Below are positions 18,783-37,740 of a DNA stretch of 37,740 bases, piece by piece. Below the pieces are notes generated by a model that was not told the DNA's origin, did no database searches, and worked only from the letters and a program-made list of their open reading frames with translations. Each line of letters opens with the position of its first letter. Position 1 is the stretch's first letter. The stretch comes from a virus. Taxonomy: Duplodnaviria > Heunggongvirae > Uroviricota > Caudoviricetes. A program made the translations under genes and the position numbers. The stretch is taken from the IMG/VR virus record IMGVR_UViG_2603880148_000004; one strand, written 5' to 3'.

Positions 18783-18806
18783 GGGGCTTCGGCCCCATTT
18801 TTAATG
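18783..18806 (+). terminator. Intrinsic terminator downstream of the major capsid gene
   Basis: ggggc-ttcg-gcccc hairpin followed by attttt. Confidence 0.5.
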
Positions 18807-18814
18807 GAGGGCAT

Positions 18815-18991: not shown

Positions 18992-18994
18992 CAC

Positions 18995-19773: not shown

Positions 19774-20154
19774 ATGGCAAAGGCATGGGATATAGAACCG
19801 TCAATATTTGCCGGGATGATTGAGGAAGATGTGGGGCTGAAAATTCGCTACATCGCTATGCAGATTCTTACTGCTATTGATATTGCTGCTCCGGTTGATA
19901 CCGGACGTTTCAGAAATAACAACCTGGTGTCGTTACAGCATCCCGATTTTGGTATATCTGATAACGTGGATCCGAACGGTACGATTGCGGTTCAGCGTGG
20001 GATCGGGGTTATTTCGAAAGCTGCAAATTACGGAGTTATTTATATCCAGAATAACCTTCCTTATGCAGAGGCTCTTGAAAACGGTCATTCACAACAAGCG
20101 CCAACTGGCGTGTATGCCAACGCTTTTCATGGTGTTTTACAGGCTTACAAATGA
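19774..20154 (+). CDS. Tail completion / neck protein, 126 aa
   Basis: Gene order; RBS aggagag. Confidence 0.5.
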   Translation: MAKAWDIEPSIFAGMIEEDVGLKIRYIAMQILTAIDIAAPVDTGRFRNNNLVSLQHPDFGISDNVDPNGTIAVQRGIGVISKAANYGVIYIQNNLPYAEALENGHSQQAPTGVYANAFHGVLQAYK

Positions 20155-20543
20155 CGTTTACTGAAATCAGAAATACGGTTATTTCCAGAATGACGGCACA
20201 GACGATTATTGATGGAAAAGACGTATTGTATCCGAACGCGCCAACGTTCGATCCTTCCGGTAAGTTAATCTGGGCGCGGTTAAGTAATATTCCCGGGCAG
20301 GCTGGAGTTAATGAAATTGGCGCGGGGCCGGTTGTTTATCGCACGGGGATAATCATTATTCAGTTATTTGTCCCCGCAGGTTCTGGTTCAAAACTCATTA
20401 CTGAGACAGCCGATAAATTGCGGGAACTGTTTGAGTTTCAGGATGACGATCGTCTCAGTTACCAGGCTGTTTCCTCAATAGCCGTCGGCGAAAAGAATGG
20501 CTGGTTCCAGCTTAATCTTCAAATTCCATATCACGCGCTCTAG
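20151..20543 (+). CDS. Tail terminator protein, 130 aa
   Basis: Gene order immediately before the major tail gene; overlapping start. Confidence 0.5.
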   Translation: MTFTEIRNTVISRMTAQTIIDGKDVLYPNAPTFDPSGKLIWARLSNIPGQAGVNEIGAGPVVYRTGIIIIQLFVPAGSGSKLITETADKLRELFEFQDDDRLSYQAVSSIAVGEKNGWFQLNLQIPYHAL

Positions 20544-20569
20544 CGCAATTAATGACATAGGAGGCTCCT

Positions 20570-21532
20570 GTGAGTTCAGGTGCAAAGGTTATCTCGGCAT
20601 TTATCCGGGAGACAGTTGCAGGCACTACGCCAGCAAGTGGTGACTGGAGTTTATTAAAACGCACAAGCTGGGGAGTAAAACCCACCCAGAATAAAGGCGA
20701 AAATAATGAGATTGGTGGCTCCCGGATGGCTCAGGGGGCGACGCCTGGCACTGTGGATGTCGGCGGTGATGTTGGTACCAAATTTCGCTGGGGTCAACAT
20801 GATGATTTTCTTGCATCCTGTTTCGGCGCGGAATGGTCAGGCGATTCTCTGACAATGGGGAATGAGCGAATAACATTTTCTCTGGCGACCTATGCGTCCG
20901 ATGTCGGAATTGCTTCTGTCGTCAGAGGAGCGCAGGTTGGCTCATGGAAAATGCAGATCCCTAACGACGGCGATATTACAGCGACCGTAACCTTTGCCGG
21001 GCTGGGCTGGGAATCAAAGGCCGATGATACGAATTTTATCAAAGGCGAACCTGTGGATAGTGCAGGAAAGTTACGCTATTCGTTTAAGGCGGTTTCAGCA
21101 GTAAGCCTGAATGGTGTTGCCGGAGGTAACGGTTTTTGTATCGACAGTTTTGATATTCAGTTCGATAACAAACTCCAGACACAGCGTTGTATCGGGACTG
21201 GCTCGCCTTATGCAGGAGCAAATATTCCGACTACTTTTACACCGTCCGGTACGGTGACGCTTTCATGGTCTAAAGCCGCGTGGGAAATCTGGAGTAAAAC
21301 ACTGACTGGAGAAACAGTTCCGTTCAGCTTCACGCTTTCGAATGGAGAGGGGGCATACACTTTCAGTTTCCCGAAGGTTCAGGTGTCAGGTGAATGGCCT
21401 GATGGGGGTAATACTGACATTATCCAGGTTCAATTGAGCATTACCGCAGCAGATGAAGCACCTACGATAACCAGAAAAAAATGCTCCCCGACTGCCGTGA
21501 TCGCAAAAGCCAGTGCTGATGCGATTAGTTGA
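20570..21532 (+). CDS. Major tail (tube) protein, 320 aa
   Basis: GTG start with RBS ggagg; position before chaperone G/GT and tape measure; Ser/Thr/Gly-rich. Confidence 0.65.
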   Translation: MSSGAKVISAFIRETVAGTTPASGDWSLLKRTSWGVKPTQNKGENNEIGGSRMAQGATPGTVDVGGDVGTKFRWGQHDDFLASCFGAEWSGDSLTMGNERITFSLATYASDVGIASVVRGAQVGSWKMQIPNDGDITATVTFAGLGWESKADDTNFIKGEPVDSAGKLRYSFKAVSAVSLNGVAGGNGFCIDSFDIQFDNKLQTQRCIGTGSPYAGANIPTTFTPSGTVTLSWSKAAWEIWSKTLTGETVPFSFTLSNGEGAYTFSFPKVQVSGEWPDGGNTDIIQVQLSITAADEAPTITRKKCSPTAVIAKASADAIS

Positions 21533-21580
21533 TTTTCCGTTATTCCCCCTGTGGTACTGCACTACAGGGGGACGCATTGA

Positions 21581-22042
21581 ATGAGGTTATGGATGTTTAT
21601 TCTTAATCAGAAAATTATCATCGGTGGAGAACGCTGGTTTACGCCAATGAAGGACTTAAAACCTGTAGACGGGTTAAAACTGTTGGTGGCAAGCAGCGAT
21701 AACGATCAGTATCGCTCCCGTAATGCATTAATCCGTCGTCACATTGAGAAAATGGATGCCAGTTTGCACGTCGGAACGAAGGAGTTTGATATTTCAAAGG
21801 TTTCCGAGGTAGATTCTGTTGATGATTTACTCATTGATAATGCTGCTCGTTATCTGCTGAAAGACTGGAAAGGGGTTGGTGAACTGGTTAATGGTGCTGA
21901 GGTTGCACTGGAATATACGCCAGAACGAGGGATCGCGCTGCTTAAGCAGAATCCAGAGTTGTACTGGCAGATCCTTGCAGAAGCAGCCAGCATCGCCCAG
22001 GGTAAAGAGCAGCAGAAGCAGGATACGATAAAAAAGCCATAG
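21581..22042 (+). CDS. Tail assembly chaperone (lambda G-like), up to 153 aa; start uncertain (21581 or 21647)
   Basis: Position between major tail and tape measure; acidic; ends 2 codons after a slippery heptamer. Confidence 0.6.
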   Translation: MRLWMFILNQKIIIGGERWFTPMKDLKPVDGLKLLVASSDNDQYRSRNALIRRHIEKMDASLHVGTKEFDISKVSEVDSVDDLLIDNAARYLLKDWKGVGELVNGAEVALEYTPERGIALLKQNPELYWQILAEAASIAQGKEQQKQDTIKKP

Positions 22043-22350
22043 CCGCCCAGCGGTGGTTATCGGAGTTCGGGGGAGAAAGGGGGGAAAAGGCAAGATGGAA
22101 GCGAGAAAAACTCAGGTTGCCACCGATACCGGAACCAGAAATAGCCCCGGTGCTTAAGGAATTGTTGTACGCCTATTCGGTAATATCCCGTGCCCGACGT
22201 TATGCTGGAATGACCGGGGTGCCTTTGCCTTTATCTCTGACAGAGATAAATGAATATTTAGCCACTCATCCGGTATTGATTGAGCGCGATGAGTTTGAAG
22301 CAGTGATCTTTGCACTGGATGACCAGTATTTTCAGGAGCAGTGTGTGTAG
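21581..22350 (+). CDS. Tail assembly chaperone GT-like fusion produced by a programmed -1 frameshift at A-AAA-AAG (22030-22036)
   Basis: The -1 frame is open from 22006 to 22350 and overlaps the end of the G-like ORF; classical X-XXY-YYZ heptamer lies 2 codons before the G stop. Confidence 0.5.
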
Positions 22351-22470
22351 TTGTTAATTACGTACACTCTGTTACAGAGATGTGATGGTGTCTTTAATTA
22401 AATCGATGATGCTCCTGGAGAAAAGCATTGCGTGGCCTCGTAATCGCTATATCTACTATTATGTCGCCTG

Positions 22471-22496
22471 AAACCCACTTCGGTGGGCTTTTTGTT
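22471..22496 (+). terminator. Intrinsic terminator-like hairpin between the chaperone genes and tape measure
   Basis: cccac-ttcg-gtggg hairpin followed by ctttttg. Confidence 0.4.
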
Positions 22497-22513
22497 GTCT
22501 GGAGTTTTAATAA

Positions 22514-25500
22514 ATGGCAGAGCAAACCTCGCGTCTCGCAATAATTATTGATAGCACTGGAGCAAAAAATAATGCTGACAATCTGACCTCCTCATTAGTC
22601 AAAATGACGCAGGCCGGGGAAACTGCTGCAAATAGCGCAGGGAAAGTGACTAAGGCAACAGAAGATGAGAAGAACGCGCTCGCAAAATTAAAAGCAGCTA
22701 TTGATCCAGTTGGTGCCGCAATTGATACTGTCGGTCGACGCTATTCTGAATTAAAGAAATTTTTCGATAAAGGGCTTATTGATAAAGAAGAATATGAATT
22801 TCTTGTCCGTAAACTTAATGAAACCACAGAGGAATTGAGCGGGGTTGCGCAAGCGCAGAGAGAAGTCGAGAAGGCCGGAAAACTTGCTGCCGCCCAGCAG
22901 GAAGCGCAGGCTCAGGCCTTTCAAAGAATGCTGGACAAGATCGACCCTCTGGCTGCGGCGCTAAGAAATCTTGAACAACAGCATGATGAACTTAATGCTG
23001 CGTTTGCATCCGGGAAAATAAATGGTTCTCAGTTTGAGAATTATAGCCGAAAAATACAGGAAACACGGCGAGAGCTTACCGGAGAGGCTCAGGCAGAGCG
23101 AGAAGCAGCAAAAGCGCATGATGAACAGGTTGTTGCTTTGCAACGTCTGATTGCTCAACTTGATCCTGTCGGAACTGCTTTTAATCGTCTGGTAGAACAA
23201 CAGAAACAGCTCAATGAAGCAAAAGCCAAGGGGATGCTTTCTCCTGAAATGTATGAGGAGCTTTCTGGAAAACTTCGTGCTATGCGGAGTGAGCTTGAGG
23301 TTACTCAATCACAATTAAGCAAAACCGGAATGTCGGCAAAACAAACGGCTTTTGCTATGCGCATGTTGCCTGCACAAATGACGGATATTGTTGTTGGGTT
23401 GTCCACTGGTCAGTCGCCATTTATGGTGTTAATGCAGCAGGGCGGCCAGCTAAAAGATATGTTCGGTGGGATTGGCCCGGCGATCAAAGGTGTAGGTTCT
23501 TATGTGCTGGGATTAATTAATCCTTTTACCCTGGCCGCAGCAGCCGTTGGGGTCTTAGGACTGGCTTACTATAAAGGCTCTCAGGAGCAGGACGAATTTA
23601 ATAAATCTCTTATTCTTACCGGAAATTAGTTGGGGACAACCAGCGGGCAATTGGGCGATATAGCTCAACGTGCCGGGAATGCGGCTGATTCGACAACTGG
23701 TGCTGCGGCGGCAGTATTAAATCAGCTTGTGCGTTCGGGAAAGGTAGCGAGCAGTTCGCTGGAGCAAGTGACGACAGCGATAGTAAAAACGAGCGAAGTA
23801 ACAGGAATATCAACCGAACAACTGGTTAATGACTTCAATGAAATTGCAAAGGATCCTGTCAGTGCCATATCAAAACTTAATGATCAGTACCATTTTCTGA
23901 CACTTGCGACTTATAACCAGATTAAGGCGCTACAGGATGAAGGGAACCAGCAGGAGGCCGCCCGCATTGCGACAGAAGAATACTCATCCTCAATGATCCA
24001 GCGCACCAACCAGATTAAAGAAAATCTTGGTTATCTTGAGACTGCATGGAAAGCTGTCGCAGACTCCGCAAAATGGGCATGGGATTCCATGCTGGATATT
24101 GGCCGTGAGACCTCCCTTGATCAAAAAATCTCAGATGTTCTCCGTCAAATTGATGAAATAGAAAAAAATACCCGACCCGGAGTTTTCGGGTTAGGTGGCA
24201 TTGGAGATGGCGGAGCTCAAAATAAAAGGCTGGCACGATTAAAGCAGCAATTGGGCGTACTTCAAGCAGAAAAAATTGCTCAGGACGTACTAAATTCATC
24301 AATAAACGATTACAACAAGCGACAACAGGAAGGAATTGAACTCAGACAGAGAGCAGATGCCTTTTCAAAACAATATCAGACCCGGGAGCAGCAGAGAGCT
24401 AGTGAACTTGCAAAACTGGAAAAGCTAAAGAATCAGTATTCAAAGGAAGAATATAATAATCTTATCGCTCAAATAAATGAGCGTTATAAAGATCCAAAGC
24501 AACCAAAGGCGAAAGGTTATTCTGATGATGCAGCCCAACGAATGATTGATCATCTGAATCAACAGAATGCGTTACTAAGTTCACAAGCTGAGTTGACCGT
24601 TAAATTAAGTTCCTCTGAACAGGAACTGGTTAAGTGGCGTCAGCGGATTGCCGACCTAGAGTCACGACCATCATCGAAATTAACCCAGGATCAGAAATCG
24701 CTTCTCTTACACCGGGAAGAAATAACCGCGTTGATGGAGAAAAATGTTACGATTGAAAAGAATAACAGGCTAATCAAGGAATCCGCCGAAATAACAGCAT
24801 GGCGTGATTCATTGCAGGCTTCGATTGATAATCGTCAGCAGGGGTATGATATTCAGATTGCTGGTTATGGGGTTGGCGATAAAAATCAGCAACGCCAGCA
24901 GGAATTACTGCGGATTGAACATGGATATAACAATCAGCGTCTGCAACTTGAACGTGACTATGCAGATAAATCCCGTGGAATGTCAGATCATGTTTTTCAA
25001 GAGAAAATGCAGGCTCTGAATGATGCTCTGGAACGGGAAAAAGAAATTGTCAGACAGAAAAACGAGCAGCTCGATATTCAGGCAGGAGACTGGGTTAGTG
25101 ATGCCTCCCAGGGATTCAATAACTGGCTGGATGACACTAAGGATATCAGTGAGCAGATAAAATCAACCACGACTCAGATGTTTGATGGGATGACCGATGC
25201 GCTGGGTGATTTTGTCACGACAGGCAAGGCAAATTTTCGTTCTTTCGCTACTTCCGTGATTTCGGATCTTAGTCGAATAGCATTAAAGGCTTCAATTACT
25301 GGGATTTTCGACAGCATTAGTAACAGTTCTTCTGGGGGGATTTTAGGAACTATCGGGAGTGCTATTAGTAAATTTATTCCGAATGCAAAGGGCGGTGTTT
25401 ATGAGTCTCCGTCATTGAGCACGTATTCGAACGGTATTTATGATTCCCCGCAATTTTTTGCTTTTGCAAAAGGGGCTGGTGTTTTTGGTGAGGCTGGACC

Positions 25501-25747
25501 GGAAGCCATTATGCCATTAACACGAACTTCCGATGGTTCTCTTGGTGTCAGAGCTATTAATAGTAAAAGTGGTAATGGAGGCGGAGATATTACCTATGCC
25601 CCTGTATACCAAATCACTATTCAAAATGACGGCCAGAATGGAGAGATTGGCCCTCAGGCAATAAAAGCACTTATGGGGATGGTTGATCAGCGGGTGCAGG
25701 GCAATCTGTTAAATATGCGACGTGATGGGGGAATGTTAAGTGGCTAA
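22514..25747 (+). pseudogene. Tail tape measure protein gene interrupted by an in-frame TAG at 23627-23629 (371-aa and 705-aa segments in one frame)
   Basis: Both ORFs share a reading frame and are separated only by TAG; the second begins at TTG straight after the stop; coiled-coil-rich N-terminal part and Gly-rich C-terminal part; combined length about 1077 aa. Confidence 0.75.
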
Positions 25748-26078
25748 TACGGAAGAATTTCACTGGTTACCAGAGGATGGAATGAAAACAGAAAATAAAC
25801 CATCGATAAAAACTGTAAGATTTGGCGATGGTTATGAGCAACGAAGTCCAAATGGACTTAATCATTCTCTGCGCGTTTTCACCTGTGATTTCAAAGTTGA
25901 GGCGAATGAACGTGATTCATTTGAAAAATTTTTAGCCCGGCATGAAGGCTATAAATCTTTTTTTTGGCGCCCGCCGGGTATTAACAGAAAAATCAGAGTG
26001 GTGTGTCGAACGTGGTCAGCGACAGAACATATCACCTATACCGATTTTTCGTGTCAGTTTGACGAAGTGGTGATCTGA
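25740..26078 (+). CDS. M: Minor tail protein M (lambda M-like), 112 aa from GTG
   Basis: ...TVRFGDGYEQRSPNGLN... and ...WSATEHITYTDFSCQFDEVV resemble lambda M motifs; position after tape measure. Confidence 0.85.
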   Translation: MANTEEFHWLPEDGMKTENKPSIKTVRFGDGYEQRSPNGLNHSLRVFTCDFKVEANERDSFEKFLARHEGYKSFFWRPPGINRKIRVVCRTWSATEHITYTDFSCQFDEVVI

Positions 26079-26776
26079 TGCAGGACATACAACAGGAAAC
26101 GCTGAATGAATGCATTCGTGCGGAGCAGTCGGCCAGCGTGGTGCTCTGGGAAATCGACCTGACCGAGGTAGGCGGGGATCGCTACTTTTTCTGTAATGAG
26201 CAGAACGAAAAAGGTGAGTCTGTCACCTGGCAGAGTCGGCAGTATCAGGCCTATCCCATTCAGGGGAGTGGATTTGAGATGAACGGCAAGGGCAGTGCTG
26301 CCCGTCCGACACTGACGGTCTCTAACCTGCACGGCATGATCACCGGGATGGCGGAAGATCTGCAGAGTCTGGTCGGCGGGACGGTGGTCCGGCGTAAGGT
26401 TTACGCCCGCTTTCTGGATGCGGTGAACTTCGTCAACGGAAACAGCGAAGCCGATCCGGAGCAGGAGGTGATCAGCCGCTGGCGCATCGAGCAGTGCAGC
26501 GAACTGAGCGCGGTCAGTGCCTCTTTTGTACTGTCCACGCCGACTGAAACGGATGGCGCTGTTTTTCCGGGACGTATCATGCTGGCCAACACCTGCACCT
26601 GGACCTATCGCGGCGATGAGTGCGGTTATAGCGGTCCGGCGGTCGCGGATGAATATGACCAGCCGACGTCCGATATCACGAAGGATAAATGCAGCAAATG
26701 CCTGAGTGGCTGTAAGTTTCGCAATAATGTCGGCAACTTTGGCAGCTTCCTTTCCATTAACAAACTTTCGCAGTAA
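26078..26776 (+). CDS. L: Minor tail protein L (lambda L-like), 232 aa
   Basis: MQDIQQETLNECIRAEQSASVVLWEIDLTEVGG... near-identical to lambda L as recalled; C-terminal Cys cluster. Confidence 0.92.
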   Translation: MQDIQQETLNECIRAEQSASVVLWEIDLTEVGGDRYFFCNEQNEKGESVTWQSRQYQAYPIQGSGFEMNGKGSAARPTLTVSNLHGMITGMAEDLQSLVGGTVVRRKVYARFLDAVNFVNGNSEADPEQEVISRWRIEQCSELSAVSASFVLSTPTETDGAVFPGRIMLANTCTWTYRGDECGYSGPAVADEYDQPTSDITKDKCSKCLSGCKFRNNVGNFGSFLSINKLSQ

Positions 26777-26781
26777 ATCCC

Positions 26782-27525
26782 ATGACAGAGACAGAATCAG
26801 CGATTCTGGCGCACGCCCGCCGATGTGCGCCAGCGGAGTCGTGCGGCTTCGTGGTGAAAACGCCGGAGGGAGAAAGATATTTTCCCTGCGTGAATATCTC
26901 CGGTGAGCCGGAGGAGTATTTCCGGATGTCGCCGGAGGACTGGCTGCGGGCAGAGATGCAGGGTGAGATTGTGGCACTGGTCCACAGTCACCCCGGTGGT
27001 CTGCCCTGGCTGAGTGAGGCCGACCGGCGGCTGCAGGTGCAGAGTGATTTGCCGTGGTGGCTGGTCTGCCGGGGGGCGATTCATAAATTCCGCTGTGTGC
27101 CGCATCTCACCGGGCGGCGCTTTGAGCACGGGGTGACGGACTGTTACACGCTGTTCCGGGATGCTTACCATCTGGCGGGAATTGAGATGCCGGATTTTCA
27201 TCGCGGGGATGACTGGTGGCGTCACGGTCAGAATCTCTATCTGGATAATCTGGAGGCCACAGGGCTGTATCAGGTGCCGTTGTCAGCGGCGCAGCCGGGC
27301 GATGTGCTGCTGTGCTGTTTTGGTTCATCGGTGCCGAATCATGCCGCCATTTACTGCGGCGACGGCGAGCTGTTGCACCATATTCCTGAACAACTGAGCA
27401 AACGAGAGAGGTATACAGACAAATGGCAGCGACGCACACACTCCCTCTGGCGTCACCGGGCATGGCACGCATCTGCCTTTACGGGGATTTACAACGATTT
27501 GGCCGCCGCATCGACCTTCGTGTGA
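26782..27525 (+). CDS. K: Tail tip assembly protein K (lambda K-like; MPN/JAMM and NlpC/P60-like motifs), 247 aa as the longest ORF
   Basis: MTETESAILAHARRCAPAESCGFVV...HSHPGG... lambda K-like; the 3' end overlaps gene I by 103 nt. Confidence 0.88.
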   Translation: MTETESAILAHARRCAPAESCGFVVKTPEGERYFPCVNISGEPEEYFRMSPEDWLRAEMQGEIVALVHSHPGGLPWLSEADRRLQVQSDLPWWLVCRGAIHKFRCVPHLTGRRFEHGVTDCYTLFRDAYHLAGIEMPDFHRGDDWWRHGQNLYLDNLEATGLYQVPLSAAQPGDVLLCCFGSSVPNHAAIYCGDGELLHHIPEQLSKRERYTDKWQRRTHSLWRHRAWHASAFTGIYNDLAAASTFV

Positions 27526-28094
27526 AAACGGGGGCCGAAGCCATCCGGGCGCTGGCCACACAGCTCCCGGCGTTTCGTCAGAAACTGAGCGACGGCTGGT
27601 ATCAGGTACGGATTGCCGGGCGGGACGTCAGCACGTCCGGATTGACGGCGCAGTTACATGAGGTTCTGCCTGACGGCGCTGTGATTCATATTGTTCCCAG
27701 AGTCGCCGGGGCCAAGTCAGGGGGCGTATTCCAGATTGTTCTGGGGGCTGCCGCCATTGCCGGATCATTCTTTACTGCCGGAGCCACCCTTGCAGCATGG
27801 GGGGCAGCCATTGGGGCAGGTGGTATGACCGGCATCCTGTTTTCTCTCGGTGCCAGTATGGTGCTCGGTGGTGTGGCCCAGATGCTGGCACCGAAAGCCA
27901 GTACCGCAACAACGACCAGCACGGATAACGGTAAGCAGAACACGTATTTCTCGTCACTGGATAACATGGTTGCCCAGGGCAATGTTCTGCCTGTTCTGTA
28001 CGGTGAAATGCGCGTGGGGTCACGCGTGGTTTCTCAGGAGATCAGCACGGCAGACGAAGGGGACGGTGGTCAGGTTGTGGTGATTGGTCGCTGA
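27423..28094 (+). CDS. I: Tail tip assembly protein I (lambda I-like), 223 aa
   Basis: MAATHTLPLASPGMARICLYGDLQRFGRRIDLRVKTG... matches lambda I from memory. Confidence 0.9.
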   Translation: MAATHTLPLASPGMARICLYGDLQRFGRRIDLRVKTGAEAIRALATQLPAFRQKLSDGWYQVRIAGRDVSTSGLTAQLHEVLPDGAVIHIVPRVAGAKSGGVFQIVLGAAAIAGSFFTAGATLAAWGAAIGAGGMTGILFSLGASMVLGGVAQMLAPKASTATTTSTDNGKQNTYFSSLDNMVAQGNVLPVLYGEMRVGSRVVSQEISTADEGDGGQVVVIGR

Positions 28095-28154
28095 TGCAAA
28101 ATGTTTTATGTGAAACCGCCTGCGGGCGGTTTTGTCATTTATGGAGCGTGAGGA

Positions 28155-29894
28155 ATGGGTAAAGGAAGCAGTAAGGGGCATACCCCGCGCGAAGCGAAGG
28201 ACAACCTGAAGTCCACGCAGCTGCTGAGTGTGATCGATGCCATCAGCGAAGGGCCGGTTGAAGGTCCGGTGGATGGATTAAAAAGCGTGCTGCTGAACAG
28301 TACGCCGGTGCTGGACAGTGAGGGGAATACCAACATCTCCGGTGTCACGGTGGTGTTCCGGGCAGGTGAGCAGGAGCAGACACCGCCGGAGGGATTTGAA
28401 TCCTCCGGTTCCGAGACGGTGCTGGGTACGGAAGTGAAATACGACACGCCGATCACCCGGACCATCACGTCTGCAAACATCGACCGTCTGCGCTTTACCT
28501 TCGGTGTGCAGGCACTGGTGGAAACCACCTCAAAGGGTGACCGGAATCCGTCGGAAGTCCGCCTGCTGGTTCAGATACAACGTAACGGTGGCTGGGTGAC
28601 AGAAAAAGACATCACCATTAAGGGCAAAACCACGTCGCAGTATCTGGCCTCGGTGGTGGTGGATAACCTGCCGCCGCGACCGTTCAATATCCGGATGCGC
28701 AGGATGACACCGGACAGCACCACAGACCAGCTGCAGAACAAAACGCTCTGGTCGTCATACACCGAAATCATCGATGTGAAACAGTGCTACCCGAACACGG
28801 CACTGGTCGGCGTACAGGTGGATTCGGAGCAGTTCGGCAGCCAGCAGGTGAGCCGTAATTATCATCTGCGCGGGCGTATTCTGCAGGTGCCGTCGAACTA
28901 TAACCCGCAGACGCGGCAATACAGCGGTATCTGGGACGGAACGTTTAAGCCAGCATACAGCAATAACATGGCCTGGTGTCTGTGGGATATGCTGACCCAT
29001 CCACGCTACGGCATGGGGAAACGTCTTGGTGTGGCGGATGTGGATAAATGGGCGCTGTATGTCATCGGCCAGTACTGCGACCAGTCAGTGCCGGACGGTT
29101 TTGGCGGTACGGAGCCGCGCATCACCTGTAATGCGTACCTGACCACACAGCGCAAGGCGTGGGATGTGCTCAGTGATTTCTGCTCGGCGATGCGCTGTAT
29201 GCCGGTATGGAACGGGCAGACGCTGACGTTCGTGCAGGACCGACCGTCGGATAAGGTGTGGACCTATAACCGCAGTAATGTGGTGATGCCGGATGATGGC
29301 GCGCCGTTCCGCTACAGCTTTAGCGCCCTGAAAGACCGCCATAATGCCGTTGAGGTGAACTGGATTGACCCGAACAACGGCTGGGAGACGGCAACAGAGC
29401 TTGTGGAGGATACGCAGGCCATTGCCCGTTACGGTCGTAACGTCACGAAGATGGATGCTTTTGGCTGTACCAGCCGGGGGCAGGCACACCGCGCCGGGCT
29501 GTGGCTGATTAAAACAGAACTGCTGGAAACGCAGACCGTGGACTTCAGCGTGGGCGCAGAAGGGCTTCGCCATGTGCCGGGTGATGTCATTGAAATCTGT
29601 GATGATGACTATGCCGGTATCAGCATCGGCGGGCGCGTGCTGGCGGGAAACAGCCAGACCCGGACGCTGACGCTCGACCGTGAAATCACGCTGCCATCCT
29701 CCGGCACCAGGCTGATAAGCCTGGTTGACGGAAGTGGCAATCCGGTCAGCGTGGAGGTTCAGTCCGTCACCGACGGCGTGAAGGTGAAAGTTAGCCGTGT
29801 TCCTGACGGCGTTGCCGGATACAGCGTGTGGGGGCTGAAGCTGCCGACGCTGCGCCAGCGCCTGTTCCGCTGCGTGAGTATTATAACCAGGTGA
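28155..29894 (+). pseudogene. J: Host specificity / central tail fibre protein J (lambda J-like), truncated after 579 codons by the Mu-like insertion
   Basis: MGKGSSKGHTPREAKDNLKSTQLLSVIDAISEGP... matches the lambda J N-terminus; lambda J is about 1130 aa; homology stops near 29882 and the ORF ends in a short unrelated tail. Confidence 0.88.
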
Positions 29895-29896
29895 AT

Positions 29897-30055
29897 CATT
29901 TGATACCGACAAGGGTTTTAGTGAAAGGAGGTGAAATCACCTGTAAGATACTGAAATAAAACAGGTGATGGCTAGATGTGCGGATAAGGTCTATTTGATA
30001 CCGATTGTGCAATAATTAGTCATTTATTATAAAATCGGCAACTCATTTGATACTG
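29897..30055 (+). repeat. Three direct copies of ATTTGATAC(C/T)G, candidate transposase-binding sites of the Mu-like left end
   Basis: Copies at 29897-29909, 29993-30004 and 30044-30055, between the element terminus and the repressor gene. Confidence 0.45.
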
Positions 30056-30127
30056 TGGTTTTAGTCTTTTAAGGCGTTCCAAACAATGCGAAATACTCGA
30101 TATAGTGCAAAATGCGGGCTAATGCTA

Positions 30128-30673
30128 TTAACCCGCTTTTGGTTCTACCGCGTTAGATTTGCGACTTCTCTCAGTTTCTTCCAAAATCTCTCTGACGCGT
30201 TCGTCAGACATACCTTCAAGCTGTAATGCAGCTATTCTTTTCCTTCCTTCTAAGCGGATTAGATCTTGATTTTCAGGCTCTAACAACCGAGCTAAGTACT
30301 TGGCTCCATTCAGAACCAAATTTTTCGATAGCTGCTCTAAGTCTTTTTCATCAAGTGCGCTGATAATCGTCATAATTATCTTCTTGCTTTCATCTTGATT
30401 TTCCTTGATCTCACACCGATTCACTTGTGATGCATCACTGAATCCACATAGCCACTCAACACTTACTCCTTCGATAGACGCAATCTGAAGGGCGACACTT
30501 AAGGATGGCTCAGTGCCACGAGACAGATAATTGTTTAGTGTTGAAAATGAAAGCCCCCAATCTCTTGCTGCAGCTCTGACGCTGCGGGAGCCAATCAGCC
30601 TTTTCAGACGCTCAGCAATGCTTTCTTTTCTACCACCAGGAAAAGAAAGAGATGTTGTTGTTTGCTTGTTCAT
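30128..30673 (-). CDS. Transcriptional repressor with HTH (XRE-like), in the Mu c position, 181 aa
   Basis: Leftward-transcribed gene between the element end and ner; HTH-like segment GLSFSTLNNYLSRGTEPSLSVALQIASIEGVSVEWL; RBS aggaag. Confidence 0.65.
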   Translation of the reverse strand: MNKQTTTSLSFPGGRKESIAERLKRLIGSRSVRAAARDWGLSFSTLNNYLSRGTEPSLSVALQIASIEGVSVEWLCGFSDASQVNRCEIKENQDESKKIIMTIISALDEKDLEQLSKNLVLNGAKYLARLLEPENQDLIRLEGRKRIAALQLEGMSDERVREILEETERSRKSNAVEPKAG

Positions 30674-30857
30674 TTTCTTTTCTTCCTATCAATTTGAAAT
30701 TATTAACTTTTAGTGTTGTCAGCAACCATTGATCCACAATAGACAAAAGAAAGATGTTTTTTTGCTTTACATGAAGCAGAGGTGGATCAATACTTATATC
30801 AAACTTGATAACTAAGTTTAGTTATCAAATTTCGTAACTTTTTAGGATAGATGAATC
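30674..30857. promoter_or_regulatory. Divergent promoter/operator region between repressor and ner
   Basis: Inverted repeats TTGATCCAC / GTGGATCAA about 75 bp apart and the palindrome TTGATAACTAAgTTTAGTTATCAA; AT-rich. Confidence 0.5.
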
Positions 30858-31088
30858 ATGGCGAGAAATGAAGTTAAGCCTGATTGGCATCCTCAAAGAA
30901 TTTTGGGGGAAGTCAGAGCCAGAGAAGGAAGCATGAGGGCGCTGGCCCGTAAAGCTGGCGTGGGTCAGAACAATCTGTACAACGCGGTATACCGCCATGT
31001 TCCCAAGTATGAGGGGATTATCGCGGAATGCCTGGGGGTGCCGCCCGAGGAGATTTGGCCCAGCCGCTACATTCGTAAGGTCGCGTAA
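30858..31088 (+). CDS. ner: Ner-like DNA-binding protein, 76 aa
   Basis: ...DWHPQRILGEVRAREGSMRALARKAGVG...VPKYEGIIAECLGVPPEEIWPSRY resembles Mu Ner (DWH.., IWPSRY motifs); located before the transposase. Confidence 0.8.
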   Translation: MARNEVKPDWHPQRILGEVRAREGSMRALARKAGVGQNNLYNAVYRHVPKYEGIIAECLGVPPEEIWPSRYIRKVA

Positions 31089-31090
31089 TT

Positions 31091-33178
31091 ATGTTTGCTT
31101 CAGTCAAAGAACTGGTTGGATTACCGGGGATGCCGGGAACGGAGCAAGGCGTTCGCTATTCAATCAGGAAGTATGCAACCAGCGAAACCAGCAGACGCCG
31201 CAAGAAAGGCGCTAAAGGTTTTGAATACAGCATTGACTGTTTACCTGAAGTGACACAGCAGGCATTACGCGAACGTTATGCCCTGCAACTGATGACGCAA
31301 AAAGCCGATGAATCACCGGCTCCGGTGGTGACAAAGGCCAGACGCTCGTCTGCCGTGGTTGATGCGGTGGAGGCATATCGCGGATCACCACAACTGATGG
31401 TCGAACGCCTCAATGCCCTGACTGAAAACCAGCGCCAGGTGGCAGACGCACGCATTGCGATCGTCAGTGAGGTGCTGAAATTCACGCAACAACCCGGTTT
31501 CAGCTGCGCTAAAGCTATCCGGTTCATCGTTGACCGCCTGTCACACTCGCAACTGGATGAGCGCATTGTGGCAATGGTTGAGATAGCGAACGCCAGAAAG
31601 GGAAACAGTCGCGTGTTGAGTGAAATCACGCTGAAACGCTGGATTGCGGCCTTTAATAAGGCACAGAACGCTGCTGAACGCCTGCTTTTGCTGGCACCAG
31701 GTAAACGCCAGGAAATAAAAGCCGAAGATATTAACTGGTTGCCCGAATTTCTGGCGCAGTATCGCCAGTCAAACGGCCGACCAATGACCGAGGCTTACGA
31801 GGATTTTGTTGCCGAATGGCAGCACCGGCACGCTGATGAGCCTTATATGCTCGATATCATGCCGTCTTATGACACCATTCGCCGCGCAATGAAGAAACTG
31901 CCGGAAGTGGTGAAACAAAAAGGACGGGTTACCGGCAGTGAATACCGCCAGCTTGAGGGATTCACGCGCCGCGACTGGTCAAAAATGCCGGTGAATTATG
32001 TCTGGATTGGTGACGGTCACGGCATGAAGCTGAAATGCGCGCACCCGGTTCACGGGCGGCCATTCGCACCGGAAGTGACCTTTGTTATCGACGGTGGCAC
32101 GCGCTTTGTGGTGGGCTGGAGCCTTGACCTGGCTGAAAATGTTTTCGCCGTAGCCGGTGCCATACAGCACGGTATTCGCCATCATGGCAAACCGTTTCTG
32201 TATTACTCGGATAATGGCTCCGGGGAAACCGCCGACGTCCTGGATAAGGAGATTGTGGGGATACTGCCACGACTGGGGATTAATCACCCGACAGGGATTG
32301 CCGGTAATCCGCAGGGACGGGGCATTATCGAACGGCTTAACCGCACATTACCGATGCGCATAGCCCGTAAATACCGCACCTATTTCGGGAAAGGAGCAGA
32401 TCGCGAGACGTTACGTAAAACCAACCGCGATTTACGCTCGGCATTCAGTGCCCTGCAACAGGGCAAACGGCTGAACGCCCGGCAGCAGTCAGCGATGCGT
32501 GATTTACCGTCCTGGTCTGAACTGATTGATGCCATTCGTGACGGTGTTGAGTGGTACAACAACCGGCCGCACGATGAATTACCCATGAAGCCGAACGGTA
32601 AACATTACAGCCCGGCGGAGTTCAGAAAAAAACGCCTGGCGGAAGAGGACACGGAAATTGAATGGCTGTCCGATGTTGAACTGCGGGATATGTTCCGGCC
32701 GATGGTGGAGCGCCCTGTAAGACGCTGTGAAATACGCTGGCTGAATAATATTTACTACGCGCCCGAGCTGCGTGACGAGCATGGCCGTAAGGTACTTATC
32801 AGCTATGACATTCATGATGCCGAACGAATTACCGTGCGCCGCCCGGATGGCAGCGTGATTTGCGAGGCGGTATGGGACGGCAATAAACGCGAAGCCTTCC
32901 CTGTCAGCGCGGAATACTACAAACAGCAGCAGCGCCTTAAAGGCATGCGTAAACGCGCAGAGGAAAAAATCCGTGATGCCGAGGATGAGGTTGTCAACGT
33001 GCGGGAGCACAAGCCGCAGGAGCCCTGGCTGGAAAACATATACCGCCCTGTGGGTAATACGGTGACCGTTCAGCAACCGGTCGCTGACGATGAACCTGAT
33101 GAAGAATACGAGCGTAATTTCCAGCGGGGATTGCAACTGCTCGAAGCGAAATTAAAAGAAAGTGATCCGCTGGCCTGA
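31091..33178 (+). CDS. Mu-type DDE transposase (MuA-like), 695 aa
   Basis: Size and position after ner; N-terminal segment VKELVGLPGMPGTEQGVRYSIRK...KGAKGFEYSIDCLP resembles the MuA N-terminal DNA-binding domain; followed by the MuB-like ATPase. Confidence 0.85.
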   Translation: MFASVKELVGLPGMPGTEQGVRYSIRKYATSETSRRRKKGAKGFEYSIDCLPEVTQQALRERYALQLMTQKADESPAPVVTKARRSSAVVDAVEAYRGSPQLMVERLNALTENQRQVADARIAIVSEVLKFTQQPGFSCAKAIRFIVDRLSHSQLDERIVAMVEIANARKGNSRVLSEITLKRWIAAFNKAQNAAERLLLLAPGKRQEIKAEDINWLPEFLAQYRQSNGRPMTEAYEDFVAEWQHRHADEPYMLDIMPSYDTIRRAMKKLPEVVKQKGRVTGSEYRQLEGFTRRDWSKMPVNYVWIGDGHGMKLKCAHPVHGRPFAPEVTFVIDGGTRFVVGWSLDLAENVFAVAGAIQHGIRHHGKPFLYYSDNGSGETADVLDKEIVGILPRLGINHPTGIAGNPQGRGIIERLNRTLPMRIARKYRTYFGKGADRETLRKTNRDLRSAFSALQQGKRLNARQQSAMRDLPSWSELIDAIRDGVEWYNNRPHDELPMKPNGKHYSPAEFRKKRLAEEDTEIEWLSDVELRDMFRPMVERPVRRCEIRWLNNIYYAPELRDEHGRKVLISYDIHDAERITVRRPDGSVICEAVWDGNKREAFPVSAEYYKQQQRLKGMRKRAEEKIRDAEDEVVNVREHKPQEPWLENIYRPVGNTVTVQQPVADDEPDEEYERNFQRGLQLLEAKLKESDPLA

Positions 33179-33260
33179 AATAAAAAAATAACCCGAGGGG
33201 TGACTCAGGTTATTTGAGGTTTCAGTCTCGGAGAATGCTGTCTCAAGCGAGGTGAATAAT

Positions 33261-34193
33261 ATGACCGATATTAACGATGTAATCAAGACCATTGATGAAC
33301 TTATTGATGGCGGCGTACTGACGCAGTATGCCATCGCCAGAGAGGCGGGAATTTCCGACGGCACATTATCGGCTTTCCGTAAGGGAAAATATAAAGGCGA
33401 TAACGCTGCTGTGGCTGCTTCCCTGCGCTCCTGGTATGAGAACTGGAATAAACAAAGCGCACTGCCGGAACCGCCGCAGTTTGTGGAAACTCAGACAGTC
33501 CAGGAGCTGCGCGCACTGTTTCAGGCGGTTCGCCTGATGGGCTGTATTAACGTTATTGTGGGCGTACCGGGTGTGGGTAAAACGGCCACTGCCCGTAATT
33601 ACTGCCAGGAGCAACCAAACACCTGGATGATCACCCTGTCACCCGCGCACTCCAGCGTCACGGAGTGTCTGCTGGAGCTGGCCGATGCGCTGGGGATTGA
33701 TTACACCCGCGCGAACAAAGGGGCATTATCCCGCGCCATCCGCCGTCGCCTGATGGGAACGCGTGGACTGGTGATTGTGGATGAGGCGGATCATCTTGGT
33801 ATTGACGGTCTGGAGCAACTCCGGGCAATTCAGGACGCCACGGGGATCGGGATGGTGCTTATTGGTAACCCGCGCGGATTGTTTAAAGGTGGACGCCGCG
33901 CCTTTGGTGATTTATCGCGCCTGTTCAGCCGTCTTGCCCGTACAAAACAACTTCGCAAGGCCAAAAAGGCGGATGTGCTGGCCATTGCCATGGCGTGGGG
34001 GATCAGTGGTGAGGCCGAGCTGGCCGTCATGCAGGCTATCGCTGAAAAGCCGGGAGCGTTACGCGTTCTGACACATACGCTTAACCAGGCGTGGCTCACC
34101 GCCAGCGGTGAAGGCGCGGCGCTGACAGAAAAACATATTAATGCGGCCTTTAAAGAGGTTTATACCAACCCTGAATTACTCTCACAGGTGTGA
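33261..34193 (+). CDS. Transposition ATPase (MuB-like AAA+ protein), 310 aa
   Basis: Walker A GVPGVGKT and Walker B VIVDEADHL; N-terminal HTH; RBS gaggtga; immediately after the transposase. Confidence 0.85.
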   Translation: MTDINDVIKTIDELIDGGVLTQYAIAREAGISDGTLSAFRKGKYKGDNAAVAASLRSWYENWNKQSALPEPPQFVETQTVQELRALFQAVRLMGCINVIVGVPGVGKTATARNYCQEQPNTWMITLSPAHSSVTECLLELADALGIDYTRANKGALSRAIRRRLMGTRGLVIVDEADHLGIDGLEQLRAIQDATGIGMVLIGNPRGLFKGGRRAFGDLSRLFSRLARTKQLRKAKKADVLAIAMAWGISGEAELAVMQAIAEKPGALRVLTHTLNQAWLTASGEGAALTEKHINAAFKEVYTNPELLSQV

Positions 34194-34195
34194 TT

Positions 34196-34417
34196 ATGGC
34201 GGTATTTAATATTCCTGATATTTACGGACGCTTTTACCTGGTTAATTTCGATAACGTGAAGGTGATTTCACTGGCCGAAAATAAAGAATGTGGCGATTTA
34301 CTTTTTGAATTTAATGACCGCACACGAATGGTGATATCTGCCGGACTTGATCGCGAAGGTGCGACAGAAGTTTACAGCGGAATATGCCGTTCTGTTGGTG
34401 CGAAACAAGTCAGCTAA
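34196..34417 (+). CDS. Small early protein in the Mu kil position, 73 aa
   Basis: Position directly after the B-like gene; RBS aggtg; overlaps the B stop. Confidence 0.45.
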   Translation: MAVFNIPDIYGRFYLVNFDNVKVISLAENKECGDLLFEFNDRTRMVISAGLDREGATEVYSGICRSVGAKQVS

Positions 34418-34429
34418 ATGAGGTGTTAT

Positions 34430-34684
34430 ATGAATATGCAATCCTGCGGTAACAAAATGAATTTATTCGACTCCCTGAACAGCGCGCGCCGTCTGACCGA
34501 ACTTGCCGGTGCGGTACTGGAACGCAGTAAGCGCTATCCGCAACGTTTTGCACTGAAAACCACGCCGCCGGTAGGCAACGTGCAGGGAACCGGTGAAATT
34601 GAAATCACCATACAGACCAACGGCCTGCGCCGCCGTGTGAAGGCCACCCGCATCAGCGGCTGCACGGTTTACTGGGAGGTGTGA
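34430..34684 (+). CDS. Hypothetical Mu-like early protein, 84 aa
   Basis: ORF with RBS gaggtg 4 nt upstream of ATG 34430. Confidence 0.4.
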   Translation: MNMQSCGNKMNLFDSLNSARRLTELAGAVLERSKRYPQRFALKTTPPVGNVQGTGEIEITIQTNGLRRRVKATRISGCTVYWEV

Positions 34685-34685
34685 G

Positions 34686-34967
34686 GTGAAAAAAAATCTC
34701 ATTGCATGGGCGTGGTCGAGTGGTCTTATTGAGTTTGGTTACGTCCTGCCGGAAGGTGCATTGCCGATAGTTGCCGGAAAGCCTGCCACGGTACGGCATG
34801 TGATTGAGGTTATGGCGCGTCATGGACGTGATGAACAGGAGCAGTTACTGGTTCCGGGGATACCGGAAGCGGTGACGGAGGAAGAAGCCTTTAATGCCAT
34901 GATTCGGTTCTGCCGTGAGGTTAGACGCCGGGTCAGTTATCCAAACAGAACGAGGACCAGAGGATGA
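34686..34967 (+). CDS. Hypothetical Mu-like early protein, 93 aa
   Basis: GTG start with RBS gggaggtg; tightly packed operon. Confidence 0.45.
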   Translation: MKKNLIAWAWSSGLIEFGYVLPEGALPIVAGKPATVRHVIEVMARHGRDEQEQLLVPGIPEAVTEEEAFNAMIRFCREVRRRVSYPNRTRTRG

Positions 34968-35236
34968 GTAAAGTCGTACGCATTATTTTCGAATACAAGG
35001 AAGATGTTATCTGCAAAAACTCTGATGGCAGCACGCACAGAGGGGTAAGTCTGGATATACGTTCAACCGGAATAAAGAAGAAAGATAATGGACCCGCCAT
35101 GATTTTTGGGGTGGTTATGCTGGCAGAAAGCAGAAACTTCGCAGAGTTTGTGGCAATGAAAGCCAGTGCATTCATGAAAGACAGAGGCATGGCTTCCGGG
35201 GTTATTAACGGTAATGAATTTAATCAACAGGGGTAA
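34964..35236 (+). CDS. Hypothetical Mu-like early protein, 90 aa (paralog of the next gene)
   Basis: RBS gaggaccagagg; N-terminus MSKVVRIIFEYKED similar to the N-terminus of the following ORF. Confidence 0.45.
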   Translation: MSKVVRIIFEYKEDVICKNSDGSTHRGVSLDIRSTGIKKKDNGPAMIFGVVMLAESRNFAEFVAMKASAFMKDRGMASGVINGNEFNQQG

Positions 35237-35240
35237 TTCC

Positions 35241-35534
35241 ATGAGCAAAGTACGCGTTATTTTTGAATTTAATCATGTTTCGCATGACGAAAAGTTGGCA
35301 GGCAATGACTGTGTTGAAGTGCATGAAAAGATTGGAGTGGATGTGAAAACAGAACGTGATACGGATAACAGGCCGACGTCACTCTGTGACGTTTATGCAA
35401 GTATTCTCCAGTATCACAGTCCTGCAATTATTCAGTTTCTCTCAGCGGAATTTCAGGCATCTGCACAGTCTTTTGGAGCGGATGCCATCATTAAACGCCA
35501 CCGCGTGCATAAAGCATCAGGCACACTGCAATAA
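35241..35534 (+). CDS. Hypothetical Mu-like early protein, 97 aa (paralog of the previous gene)
   Basis: RBS acagggg; N-terminus MSKVRVIFEFNHV similar to the preceding ORF. Confidence 0.45.
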   Translation: MSKVRVIFEFNHVSHDEKLAGNDCVEVHEKIGVDVKTERDTDNRPTSLCDVYASILQYHSPAIIQFLSAEFQASAQSFGADAIIKRHRVHKASGTLQ

Positions 35535-35545
35535 GGAAAAACAAA

Positions 35546-36076
35546 ATGGCTAAACGCGTTACAAAATTAAAGGCCGCAGCCGAGGCGGCACCGCAGACCC
35601 GGGAAGAAGTCAGCCGTGATATCCGCACCCTGGGAGATATTCAGCGAGAGGCGCTGCGCCTGGAAACGGCGATGAATGACGAAGTGGCAGAAATCACCGC
35701 CCGTTATACGCCGCAGATTGAAAATCTTAAAAAGCAAATCAAAGTGCTTTTTAAAGGGATTCAGGACTGGTGCAAAACCAACCGTGATGAGCTGACGAAC
35801 GGCGGCAAAACCAAAACAGCCAATCTGACCACCGGAACGGTGTCATGGCGGCTGGGAACGCCATCATGCAGCGTCAGCCGTGATGTGGAAGGTGTGATTG
35901 AAATGCTGCGCCGTATGGGGCTTGAGCGTTTCATCCGCACGAAAGAGGAAGTGAACAAGGAAGCCGTCCTGGCGGAGCCGGATGCTGTGAAAGGCATTGC
36001 CGGTATCAAGGTGAATAAAGGCGCTGAAAGTTTTTATGTCGAGCCTTTTGAACAGGACGCCGGACTGAATAAATAA
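35546..36076 (+). CDS. gam: Gam-like host-nuclease inhibitor / DNA-end-binding protein, 176 aa
   Basis: Size and position as for Mu Gam; RBS aaggaaaa. Confidence 0.7.
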   Translation: MAKRVTKLKAAAEAAPQTREEVSRDIRTLGDIQREALRLETAMNDEVAEITARYTPQIENLKKQIKVLFKGIQDWCKTNRDELTNGGKTKTANLTTGTVSWRLGTPSCSVSRDVEGVIEMLRRMGLERFIRTKEEVNKEAVLAEPDAVKGIAGIKVNKGAESFYVEPFEQDAGLNK

Positions 36077-36221
36077 CACCACATTAATCAATTAAATATC
36101 ACTTCATTTTAATTATGGCGCTCGCGTCAGGGGACTGCTTGCGCCTGAAAACAGAAAATAAGGGTTAAGAAATATGAAATACGTTTATATCGTCATTAAT
36201 AATGTGGTGGGGAAATAAATC

Positions 36222-36755
36222 ATGATTGATGCAAAAGTGCTTGAAGGGGTTAAAAACTGGCTGTGTATTTATGGCCGCCTGACCTGCGGTGTACTGGCTG
36301 AAAAAATGAATATGCCGCCATCCTCCATGGTTTATTTTCTGCGTGATGCGGTTGATGCAGGCGTGCTGACGGAATGTAACGGTTTTTATGATATTCCGCG
36401 CCCCCGCCCGGTGCAGCCGGTTCGTCGCAAATGCAGCCAGGAATCTGCGGCTGATGATGTTCAGTGGTGCGGCTTCAGAAAATCCCTGCCATGGATTGAG
36501 GGGCATGATATTCCGTCGATGGCGTGGGAATTTGCTCAGGGCGTTCTGACCTGTGAAACCGTTTATGTGGTGGCTGAAGTTGATGAGCAGGCCATGAAAG
36601 AAGGCGTGCCCCAGTTTGTGATGGCGTATATCGACATACGCCTGGGCGTCATTATCTGCGGTTTAAGCGGCTGGAATATCACTGAACATGTTCTGCGCTA
36701 CCTGATTGTTGACCGGACAGCAGCGCCTGCCGGGATATCTGCGGAGGTGGCGTAA
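36222..36755 (+). CDS. Hypothetical Mu-like early protein, 177 aa
   Basis: ORF with RBS ggtgggga; position similar to Mu GemA-type genes (position only). Confidence 0.5.
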   Translation: MIDAKVLEGVKNWLCIYGRLTCGVLAEKMNMPPSSMVYFLRDAVDAGVLTECNGFYDIPRPRPVQPVRRKCSQESAADDVQWCGFRKSLPWIEGHDIPSMAWEFAQGVLTCETVYVVAEVDEQAMKEGVPQFVMAYIDIRLGVIICGLSGWNITEHVLRYLIVDRTAAPAGISAEVA

Positions 36756-37270
36756 TGTTCTTTAAAACATCAAACCCTTCCGCGCTGGCTGCGTGGCAAA
36801 AATACCAGCAGGACTGCCAGAAAGTTAAGGATGAGGCAAAACGCCTTGAGGCCGTGCTGAATGTTGCGTGCCGGTCGGTATTTGTATCCGGTATCAGTGG
36901 ATTTTACTTTAAGGGACTGCGTTTTACGGAGGACAAATATCCTTTTCATCGCGACTTATGGCGAAAACCGACTGCGTCGAATGGCTGGAGCTGCACACCG
37001 CGCACATCACGTATCCCTAAAACCCTGCGTGTTGCCTCTGATGAACTGAACAGTCTGTGGCGTGAATATTCGCCCGTCACGTATGCCAGAACCGATGCGC
37101 TGTTGTTCTGGTTGGGTATTGATTTCTCGGCAATCCTGTTTGGCCCTGTGAAGTGGTTCTGCGTTGACGATGTGATTTACCTTCAGTGCGGCGTAAAACC
37201 CGCAAAACAGAAAATGACCGAAATACTGTCTGATGAGTTTTATGCTGCTGAAAAGCGAGTCAGGGGGTGA
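36755..37270 (+). CDS. Hypothetical Mu-like early protein, 171 aa
   Basis: ORF with RBS ggaggtgg; start overlaps preceding stop. Confidence 0.5.
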   Translation: MFFKTSNPSALAAWQKYQQDCQKVKDEAKRLEAVLNVACRSVFVSGISGFYFKGLRFTEDKYPFHRDLWRKPTASNGWSCTPRTSRIPKTLRVASDELNSLWREYSPVTYARTDALLFWLGIDFSAILFGPVKWFCVDDVIYLQCGVKPAKQKMTEILSDEFYAAEKRVRG

Positions 37271-37273
37271 TGC

Positions 37274-37471
37274 ATGATGAAATTACAACCCATGGGACTA
37301 AAAGGTCGCGCCCCCGCTCATGTCCGTCCGTGGACACCTGAAGAAGATGCGCTGCTGATTGCGCTTTATTCATCCACCCCGGTTAAGGATATTGCTGCCA
37401 GAATAAAAAGAACTGTCTGGGCTGTATATAACCGGACTGGTGTATTGCGCAGTTCATACCCGGAGTTACTG
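37274..37471 (+). pseudogene. Mu-like early gene truncated by IS1 insertion (first about 66 codons intact)
   Basis: ORF MMKLQPMGLKGRAPAHVRPWTPEEDALLIALY... runs into the IS1 terminus at 37472; its last about 26 codons are read from IS1 sequence. Confidence 0.4.
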
Positions 37472-37740
37472 GGTAGTGACTCCAACTTACTGATAGTGTT
37501 TTATGTTCAGATAATGCCCGATGACCTTGTCATGCAGCTCCACCGATTTTGAGAACGACAGCGACTTCCGTCCCAGCCTTGCCAGATGTTGTCTCAGATT
37601 CAGATTATGTCGCTCAATGCGCTGAGTGTAACGCTTGCTGATAACGTGCAGCTTTCCCTTCAGGCGTGATTCATACAGCGGCCAGCCATCCGTCATCCAT
37701 ACCACGACCTCAAAGGCCGACAGCAGGCTCAGAAGACGCT
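37472..37740 (-). mobile_element. Partial IS1, inverted relative to the copy at 1-267, cut by the window edge
   Basis: ggtagtgactccaacttactgatagtgttttatgttcag... is the reverse complement of the IS1 end at 240-267; encodes an identical InsB C-terminus on the minus strand. Confidence 0.85.
37487..37740 (-). CDS. insB: IS1 transposase InsB, C-terminal fragment (N-terminus outside the window)
   Basis: Minus-strand translation identical to the InsB fragment at 1-252. Confidence 0.85.

Follow-up and report, generated by a model that had tools for sequence, protein, structure and literature searches.

Probable separate IS1 events and repeat-induced contig breaks at the ends of an Escherichia coli contig carrying a Mu-like prophage nested in a defective lambdoid prophage

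Introduction

IS1 usually inserts in a simple manner, and its insertions have classically polar effects. IS1 also forms composite transposons, among them some with inverted arms. In phage Mu, mor is transcribed in the early operon and is required for the middle promoter, and hence for middle and then late transcription. The locus described here touches on all of these, and each of its parts is of a kind already known: insertion of IS1, deletion next to IS1, draft contigs that break at IS copies, and lambdoid prophages that harbor Mu-like phages.

The stretch of DNA that we analyzed (the window, 37,740 bp) is the whole of contig JNLZ01000052.1 of the draft assembly GCA_000700125.1, from E. coli 3-105-05_S1_C1 (100% identity); GenBank protein KDT31704.1 belongs to the same strain. 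A first-pass annotation had proposed that IS1 truncates a Mu-like element at one edge of the window, and that two inverted IS1 copies bracketing the prophage DNA reflect IS1-mediated deletion or inversion. Our results very probably have a different explanation as a whole, in which the contig stops within a multi-copy IS1 at both ends and, behind these stops, lie two real but separate IS1 events.

Results

Both edges of the window carry the same end of IS1 (Table 1). A repeat finder returned an inverted repeat of 267 nt (1-267 and 37472-37738) with arms that are 100% complementary and separated by 37,204 nt; the right arm runs 2 bases beyond the repeat, reaching 37740. The right-end IS1 terminus, GGTAGTGACTCC, begins at 37472, and the right edge reads CCCGGAGTTACTG followed by GGTAGTGACTCCAACTTACTGATAGTG across the 37471/37472 boundary. 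The left edge reads CAGTAAGTTGGAGTCACTACC followed by AGAAAGTTAGG across the 267/268 boundary, with CAGTAAGTTGGAGTCACTACC the reverse complement of the right IS1 end. An IS1-type terminal inverted repeat (GGTRRTG...CCAACTTA...) is present at the element boundaries, as GGTAGTGACTCCAACTTACTG from 37472 and as its reverse complement ending at 267, and at both boundaries it is identical to the IRR end of the annotated IS1 of E. coli 600029, the closest complete relative. The IRR (insB) ends of the two copies point inward. Each arm contains an ORF of 72 aa, at 34-252 (+) and 37487-37705 (-), that encodes the InsB C-terminus and matches PF03400 (DDE_Tnp_IS1; E = 3.4e-38, profile positions 61-131 of 131); PF03400 is likewise assigned to the gene called on the contig. 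Thus, the first-pass annotation was right that an IS1 end at 37472 faces an inverted, identical copy with the same InsB fragment at 1-267, and that two inverted IS1 ends bracket 37.2 kb of DNA.

Table 1. Features of the 37,740-bp window
Feature	Position	Strand	Remarks
Left IS1 arm, last 267 nt (IS1 502-768)	1..267	insB 3' end on +	IRR terminus at 267; contig begins inside the element
Nine bases AGAAAGTTA, directly inside the left IS1	268..276		Outer flank in 600029 is TGCTATCTG, no match
Defective lambdoid prophage, nin region to first 575 full codons of J	268..29881	+	Collinear with the ybhC/bioA prophage of 600029
Mu-like prophage left end and early region, inserted in J	29882..37471	+ (repressor -)	Mu-specific domains in order, end repeats
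Interrupted SANT/Myb-like gene: 66 native codons (37274-37471), 26 IS1-derived codons and stop	37274..37552	+	Native form 183 codons
GAGTTACTG, 9 bp that a simple insertion would duplicate on the far side	37463..37471		Empty site in L001, L007, L011, L012
Right IS1 arm, last 269 nt (IS1 500-768), inverted	37472..37740	-	IRR terminus at 37472; contig terminates inside the element

Both arms match the last 267-269 nt of annotated 768-bp IS1 copies in E. coli 600029 at 100% identity. In that genome, the IS1 at the identical left junction is 768 bp long and is annotated with a programmed frameshift. This type of IS1 (window arms; 600029 sequence L008, 6870-7637) is a mosaic: it shows 39 differences from an IS1A copy, 35 of which fall at positions 396-764, and its 5' part is almost identical to IS1A. 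The pattern suggests that recombination between divergent IS1 variants may have produced it.

The contig begins at IS1 coordinate 502 and terminates at IS1 coordinate 500 (of 768), so that its two ends stop within 2 nt of each other in the element. Queries with pieces of IS1 found a median of 10 matching places per E. coli genome and at least 40 in 600029. Since the stop coordinate is almost the same at both ends and IS1 is highly repeated, we infer from the geometry of the ends that both are repeat-induced stops of the assembler in multi-copy IS1. The last ~267 nt of IS1 are apparently common to several copies that diverge further in; the mosaic structure of the element, with its differences clustered at 396-764, makes such a pattern plausible. 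As the arms end in a collapsed repeat, their identity says little about these two particular copies. In addition, because the window edges are draft contig ends, the absence of middle and late Mu genes, which the first-pass annotation attributed to IS1, says only that the contig stops. The window by itself cannot show that IS1 removed the remainder of the Mu-like prophage.

Inside the left IS1, the lambdoid segment carries a P22AR_C remnant, ybcN, ninE, rusA, Q, a porin gene, a methyltransferase gene, lysis genes, trkG, terminase, head and tail genes, and a split tape-measure gene. Alignment of window positions 1-29881 with the 600029 chromosome (NZ_CM128582.1, L008) revealed 19 mismatches and 0 gaps. 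The 600029 prophage sits between ybhC and ybhB/bioA, at the lambda attachment site. Its left IS1 is a full 768-bp copy between xis and the nin region, giving the order int-xis-IS1-nin, and the junction of this IS1 with the nin region matches the left junction of the window base for base.

The tape-measure gene (22514-25747) is split into ORFs of 371 aa and 705 aa by an internal stop at 23627-23629, and the same gene in 600029 is annotated as a pseudogene with an internal stop. Thus, the lambdoid prophage is defective in several ways. The cargo genes between Q and terminase include an OmpC/NmpC-like porin gene (3738-4871, -), a DNA methyltransferase gene (5739-6791, +) and a gene for a TrkG potassium transporter (8282-9739, +); the TrkG protein is extremely widespread, being listed in 21,295 index blocks.

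The complete copy in 600029 allowed both flanks of the left IS1 to be compared. The outer flank, TGCTATCTG, does not match the inner flank, AGAAAGTTA, and there is no 9-bp target duplication. In the IS1-free EC100, ybcK and a full early region precede the inner flank. Since the target duplication is lacking and the early region is absent between xis and the nin region, the left junction is, on this evidence from outside the window, best read as an IS1-associated deletion junction. Matching 9-bp direct repeats around each IS1, which had been named as the observation that would speak against rearrangement, are therefore not what the left copy shows in 600029. The earlier proposal that IS1-mediated deletion or inversion shaped the locus stands in part: deletion is supported on the left side through 600029, while the visible flanks carry no signature of inversion.

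In relatives with the same int and xis genes, the outer flank runs on into other prophage DNA (CGCCCACAGC...) and then meets a different IS1, whose neighbor is a truncated quuD in 2018-05-5CC and a truncated portal gene in CUPF09. Thus, the family of prophages integrated at ybhC is repeatedly eroded by IS1. The other IS1 occupies one fixed left position in the two ybhC prophages (17160-17930 of both L016, from CUPF09, and L017, from 2018-05-5CC), with the portal gene as right neighbor in the former and quuD in the latter, a textbook adjacent-deletion series of differing extent.

The second prophage is joined to J after position 29881. It consists of an attL with three ATTTGATACCGA-type sites, a repressor gene (on the - strand), ner, A, B, kil, gam, gp11-like and gp12-like genes, and, up to its codon 66, a Myb/HTH regulator-like gene. 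The three direct ATTTGATACCGA-type sites, at 29898, 29993 and 30045, lie within 175 nt of the Mu-like end, and the Mu domains PF02316, PF09299, PF09077, PF07352, PF26843 and PF26885 are consecutive on the contig. Both the synteny of the left end (repressor/ner/MuA/MuB/kil/gam) and the repeated putative transposase-binding sites are those of a Mu-like prophage. The end sequence, TATAACCAGGTGAATC..., does not vary among three different insertion sites. Judged from three independent left flanks and one right end, the termini of this element may be TA(TA)...(TA)TA rather than the canonical TG...CA of Mu. In 600029, the J gene is intact, and a complete, IS1-free Mu-like prophage resides in sgrR, 99.5% identical to the window over the 7.6 kb that they share. 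The Mu-like segment is also 93.5% identical to an 'inserted Bacteriophage Mu-like phage' of Stx phages.

The gene at the right IS1 junction encodes 183 aa when intact. This form carries the annotation 'SANT/Myb-like DNA-binding domain-containing protein' and hits phrog_323, 'transcriptional regulator'. In Pfam, it gives weak Myb and HTH matches that fall below threshold. Intact relatives continue past the regulator-like gene with gemA/gp16, mor and lysozyme genes. The uninterrupted gene, with the empty site CCCGGAGTTACTG joined directly to AAATATAAACACCC, is present in 600029 and in several other sequences. With the IRR at 37472, the 183-codon gene cut after codon 66 and the empty site found in relatives, the interruption of a Mu-like early ORF by IS1, as described in the first-pass annotation, is confirmed.

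The right junction recurs in JNMX01000022.1 (L003; 66,644 bp, GCA_000700685.1), a contig that reads 304 nt into IS1 before it ends, and in L005, an ENA metagenome contig of 821 bp. The sister assembly, L003, shares both the J::Mu and the Mu::IS1 junctions with the window and has 1 mismatch in the 7.6 kb of Mu. Its positions 1-600, compared with window positions 27249-28300, contain a divergent tail K/I block with ~40 clustered mismatches and an indel, a pattern that indicates probable recombination within the lambdoid tail region between close relatives. An independent IS1 lies ~85 nt further into the same regulator-like gene in SRR29904427 (Logan contig L007, 10001-10307; protein P0013). This IS1 is in the opposite orientation, with its left end first, and the Mu-like prophage that contains it is at another chromosomal locus. 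As this is a second independent insertion, the SANT/Myb-like gene is a recurrent target of IS1.

What lies beyond the right IS1 depends on whether the element arrived by simple insertion or whether a deletion or other rearrangement accompanied it, and we consider the two about equally probable. A simple insertion predicts that the far side would consist of the IS1 left end GGCAGCATCACC, then a duplication of GAGTTACTG, then AAATATAAACACCC with the rest of the gene. It also predicts a callable C-terminal remnant ORF of 96 aa (MTCQQMG...). If the remainder of the prophage were still in place, the J sequence adjoining the Mu right end would be AGTATCCGTGAGAAC.

The 96-aa ORF is present in the protein collection, and none of the contigs that carry it shows an IS1 junction. 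These contigs are frameshift variants of the gene (L009, L011, L014, L015 and L019), short or scaffold-gapped metagenome contigs (L012 and L013), and L010. The last comes from 3-373-03_S1_C2, another isolate of the same collection. This contig, of 1,603 bp, contains no IS1 bases; its first base lies 11 nt beyond the insertion point and 20 nt from the position at which a simple insertion would place the IS1 end. L010 carries the remainder of the gene and the downstream early genes up to gemA.

Other searches for the far side were negative. An exact-match protein index has no entry for the 96-aa ORF from any of the three data sets with the right junction, two NCBI assemblies and one ENA metagenome. 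A homology search with the intact 183-aa protein returned no remnant from the lineage of the window, and only P0013, the product of the different IS1 insertion. Neither the predicted partner junction nor the observed junction turned up when the JGI metagenome, GTDB-representative and IMG/VR collections, which exclude this assembly, were scanned for exact patterns. The Mu-right-end::J fusion ORFs predicted from 600029 sequences had no match in the protein collection, for which an exact match was required. A literature search on the WGS accessions recovered only unrelated pipolin papers.

The strongest alternative to a simple insertion is a true truncation, to which we give somewhat less than an even chance. 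In this case, an IS1 adjacent deletion or IS1-IS1 recombination removed the Mu-like prophage from codon 67 on, possibly together with the 3' half of J and sequences beyond, and a dead Mu left-end fragment remains. IS1 is found repeatedly at deletion junctions in this prophage family, both at the left junction of 600029 and next to quuD and the portal gene in 2018-05-5CC and CUPF09, and the DNA of the predicted partner junction is absent from the three collections that could be scanned. That assemblies holding the junction have no record of the C-terminal remnant ORF is weak evidence that leans slightly toward downstream loss. However, absence from an exact-match protein index hinges on the allele, the choice of start codon and the filtering of contigs, and the DNA collections that were scanned do not contain this assembly. 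Moreover, the start of L010 at this very site hints that the downstream part exists in a related collection, and a simple insertion is the usual outcome for IS1.

We also considered whether the inverted IS1 pair forms a functional unit with the 37.2 kb that it encloses. Such a unit could be a composite IS1 transposon, or a segment that arose or was inverted through IS1 intramolecular transposition or through recombination between the copies. The geometry, inverted copies with both IRRs inward, is compatible with such a unit, and composite transposons with this arrangement of arms are known. The distribution of the junctions argues otherwise. Among 5,426 complete E. coli genomes, the exact left junction occurs in one, 600029, while neither the right junction nor the J::Mu junction occurs in any. 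(EC931 aligns over the whole left-junction query and was at first a candidate for a second genome; it was rejected because it carries a different IS1A insertion ~160 nt away.) In 600029, the prophage with the identical left junction has normal gene order, with no Mu in J and no right IS1. Since this genome combines the left junction with an intact J and an IS1-free Mu elsewhere, the two IS1 events are independent, and since the two junctions do not occur together in the closest relative, the composite-transposon reading fails this test of co-occurrence.

The flanking sequences point the same way. The two inner flanks, AGAAAGTTA and GAGTTACTG, bear no relation to each other, whether compared directly or in reverse complement, and the reverse complement of the outer-left flank of 600029 (CAGATAGCA) does not match the inner-right flank GAGTTACTG. 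Thus, for the inner pair and for the inner-right flank compared with the outer-left flank of 600029, there is no signature of IS1 intramolecular transposition or inversion. The cargo, moreover, consists of two dead prophage pieces, and a genome with dozens of IS1 copies should by chance contain neighboring inverted pairs. That the bracketed segment could move or invert again, as had been suggested, would hold for any inverted IS1 pair; a unit is unsupported here, where 600029 has the left junction alone. We consider a functional unit very unlikely. An elaboration of this idea, in which IS1 in the early operon made a stable, non-lytic Mu-like remnant (left end, repressor and A/B) that is invertible, or mobilizable with the lambdoid late genes as a 38.7-kb IS1 composite, is extremely unlikely.

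Finally, both IS1 ends fall where a short-read draft contig runs into a collapsed repeat and might have been chimeric joins with no IS1 truly adjacent, an artefact that the first-pass annotation had allowed for; this can be dismissed with near certainty, since the left junction is present base for base in a complete genome and the right junction recurs both in an independent assembly with different neighboring alleles and in a metagenome contig, and such recurrence in independent sequences excludes assembly chimerism.

Discussion

The reading that we prefer, repeat-induced contig ends with two separate IS1 events behind them, implies a history of three steps. In the oldest, an IS1 and a deletion between xis and nin would have removed the whole early region of the lambdoid prophage, an event common to the window and 600029. 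A Mu-like phage would then have transposed into J of the dead lambdoid prophage. In the third step, IS1 would have landed after codon 66 of the Myb/HTH regulator-like gene, an early-operon gene that precedes gemA and mor.

This last insertion should have destroyed the regulator-like gene, removing two thirds of its protein. As IS1 is strongly polar, early-operon transcription should not reach mor. The switch from early to middle and late expression would be blocked even if the remainder of the prophage were present. Thus, even after a simple insertion, the prophage should still express its repressor and A/B, and not its late genes.

The biology of the locus is routine layered prophage decay in an IS1-rich E. 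coli lineage, without wider consequence: a lambdoid early region was lost to IS1, a Mu-like phage entered J, and IS1 settled upstream of mor. The locus carries a caution for the annotation of drafts. Identical inverted IS fragments at the edges of a draft sequence are the normal footprint of repeat-induced contig breaks, and genes that seem 'missing' past contig ends in an IS are no evidence of deletion.

Comparison with described systems places each part of the locus. Its element belongs with the IS1 family (IS1A-like), since annotated 768-bp copies share its terminal inverted repeat and its InsB C-terminus at 100% identity; of the 768 positions in this lineage's copy type, 39 depart from IS1A, most of them in the 3' half, and the window holds only 267-269 nt of each copy. 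The contig resembles short-read drafts broken at repeats in that both ends lie in one multi-copy element at the same internal coordinate (±2 nt) and in that the sister-assembly contig also terminates inside the IS1 of the right junction, although in the window the break is deduced from geometry.

The locus shares with Tn9 (direct repeats) and Tn1681 (inverted repeats) a DNA segment with an IS1 copy on either side, and its own copies are inverted. Unlike in these composite transposons, there is no sign that the block exists or moves as a unit, as a relative has one junction without the other, and the 37-kb cargo is far larger than in known examples. The left junction instead resembles the classical IS1 adjacent deletions, in that ~10 kb of early prophage genes have given way to IS1 and no target duplication is present. 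The closest counterparts of the nested prophages are the Mu-like inserts in the lambdoid Stx prophages LC727881 and LC727895, which belong to the same Mu-like family (93.5% over the early region) and are likewise nested in a lambdoid prophage. In the window, in contrast, the target is J of a non-Stx prophage that was already defective, and the early operon of the Mu-like element has itself received an IS1.
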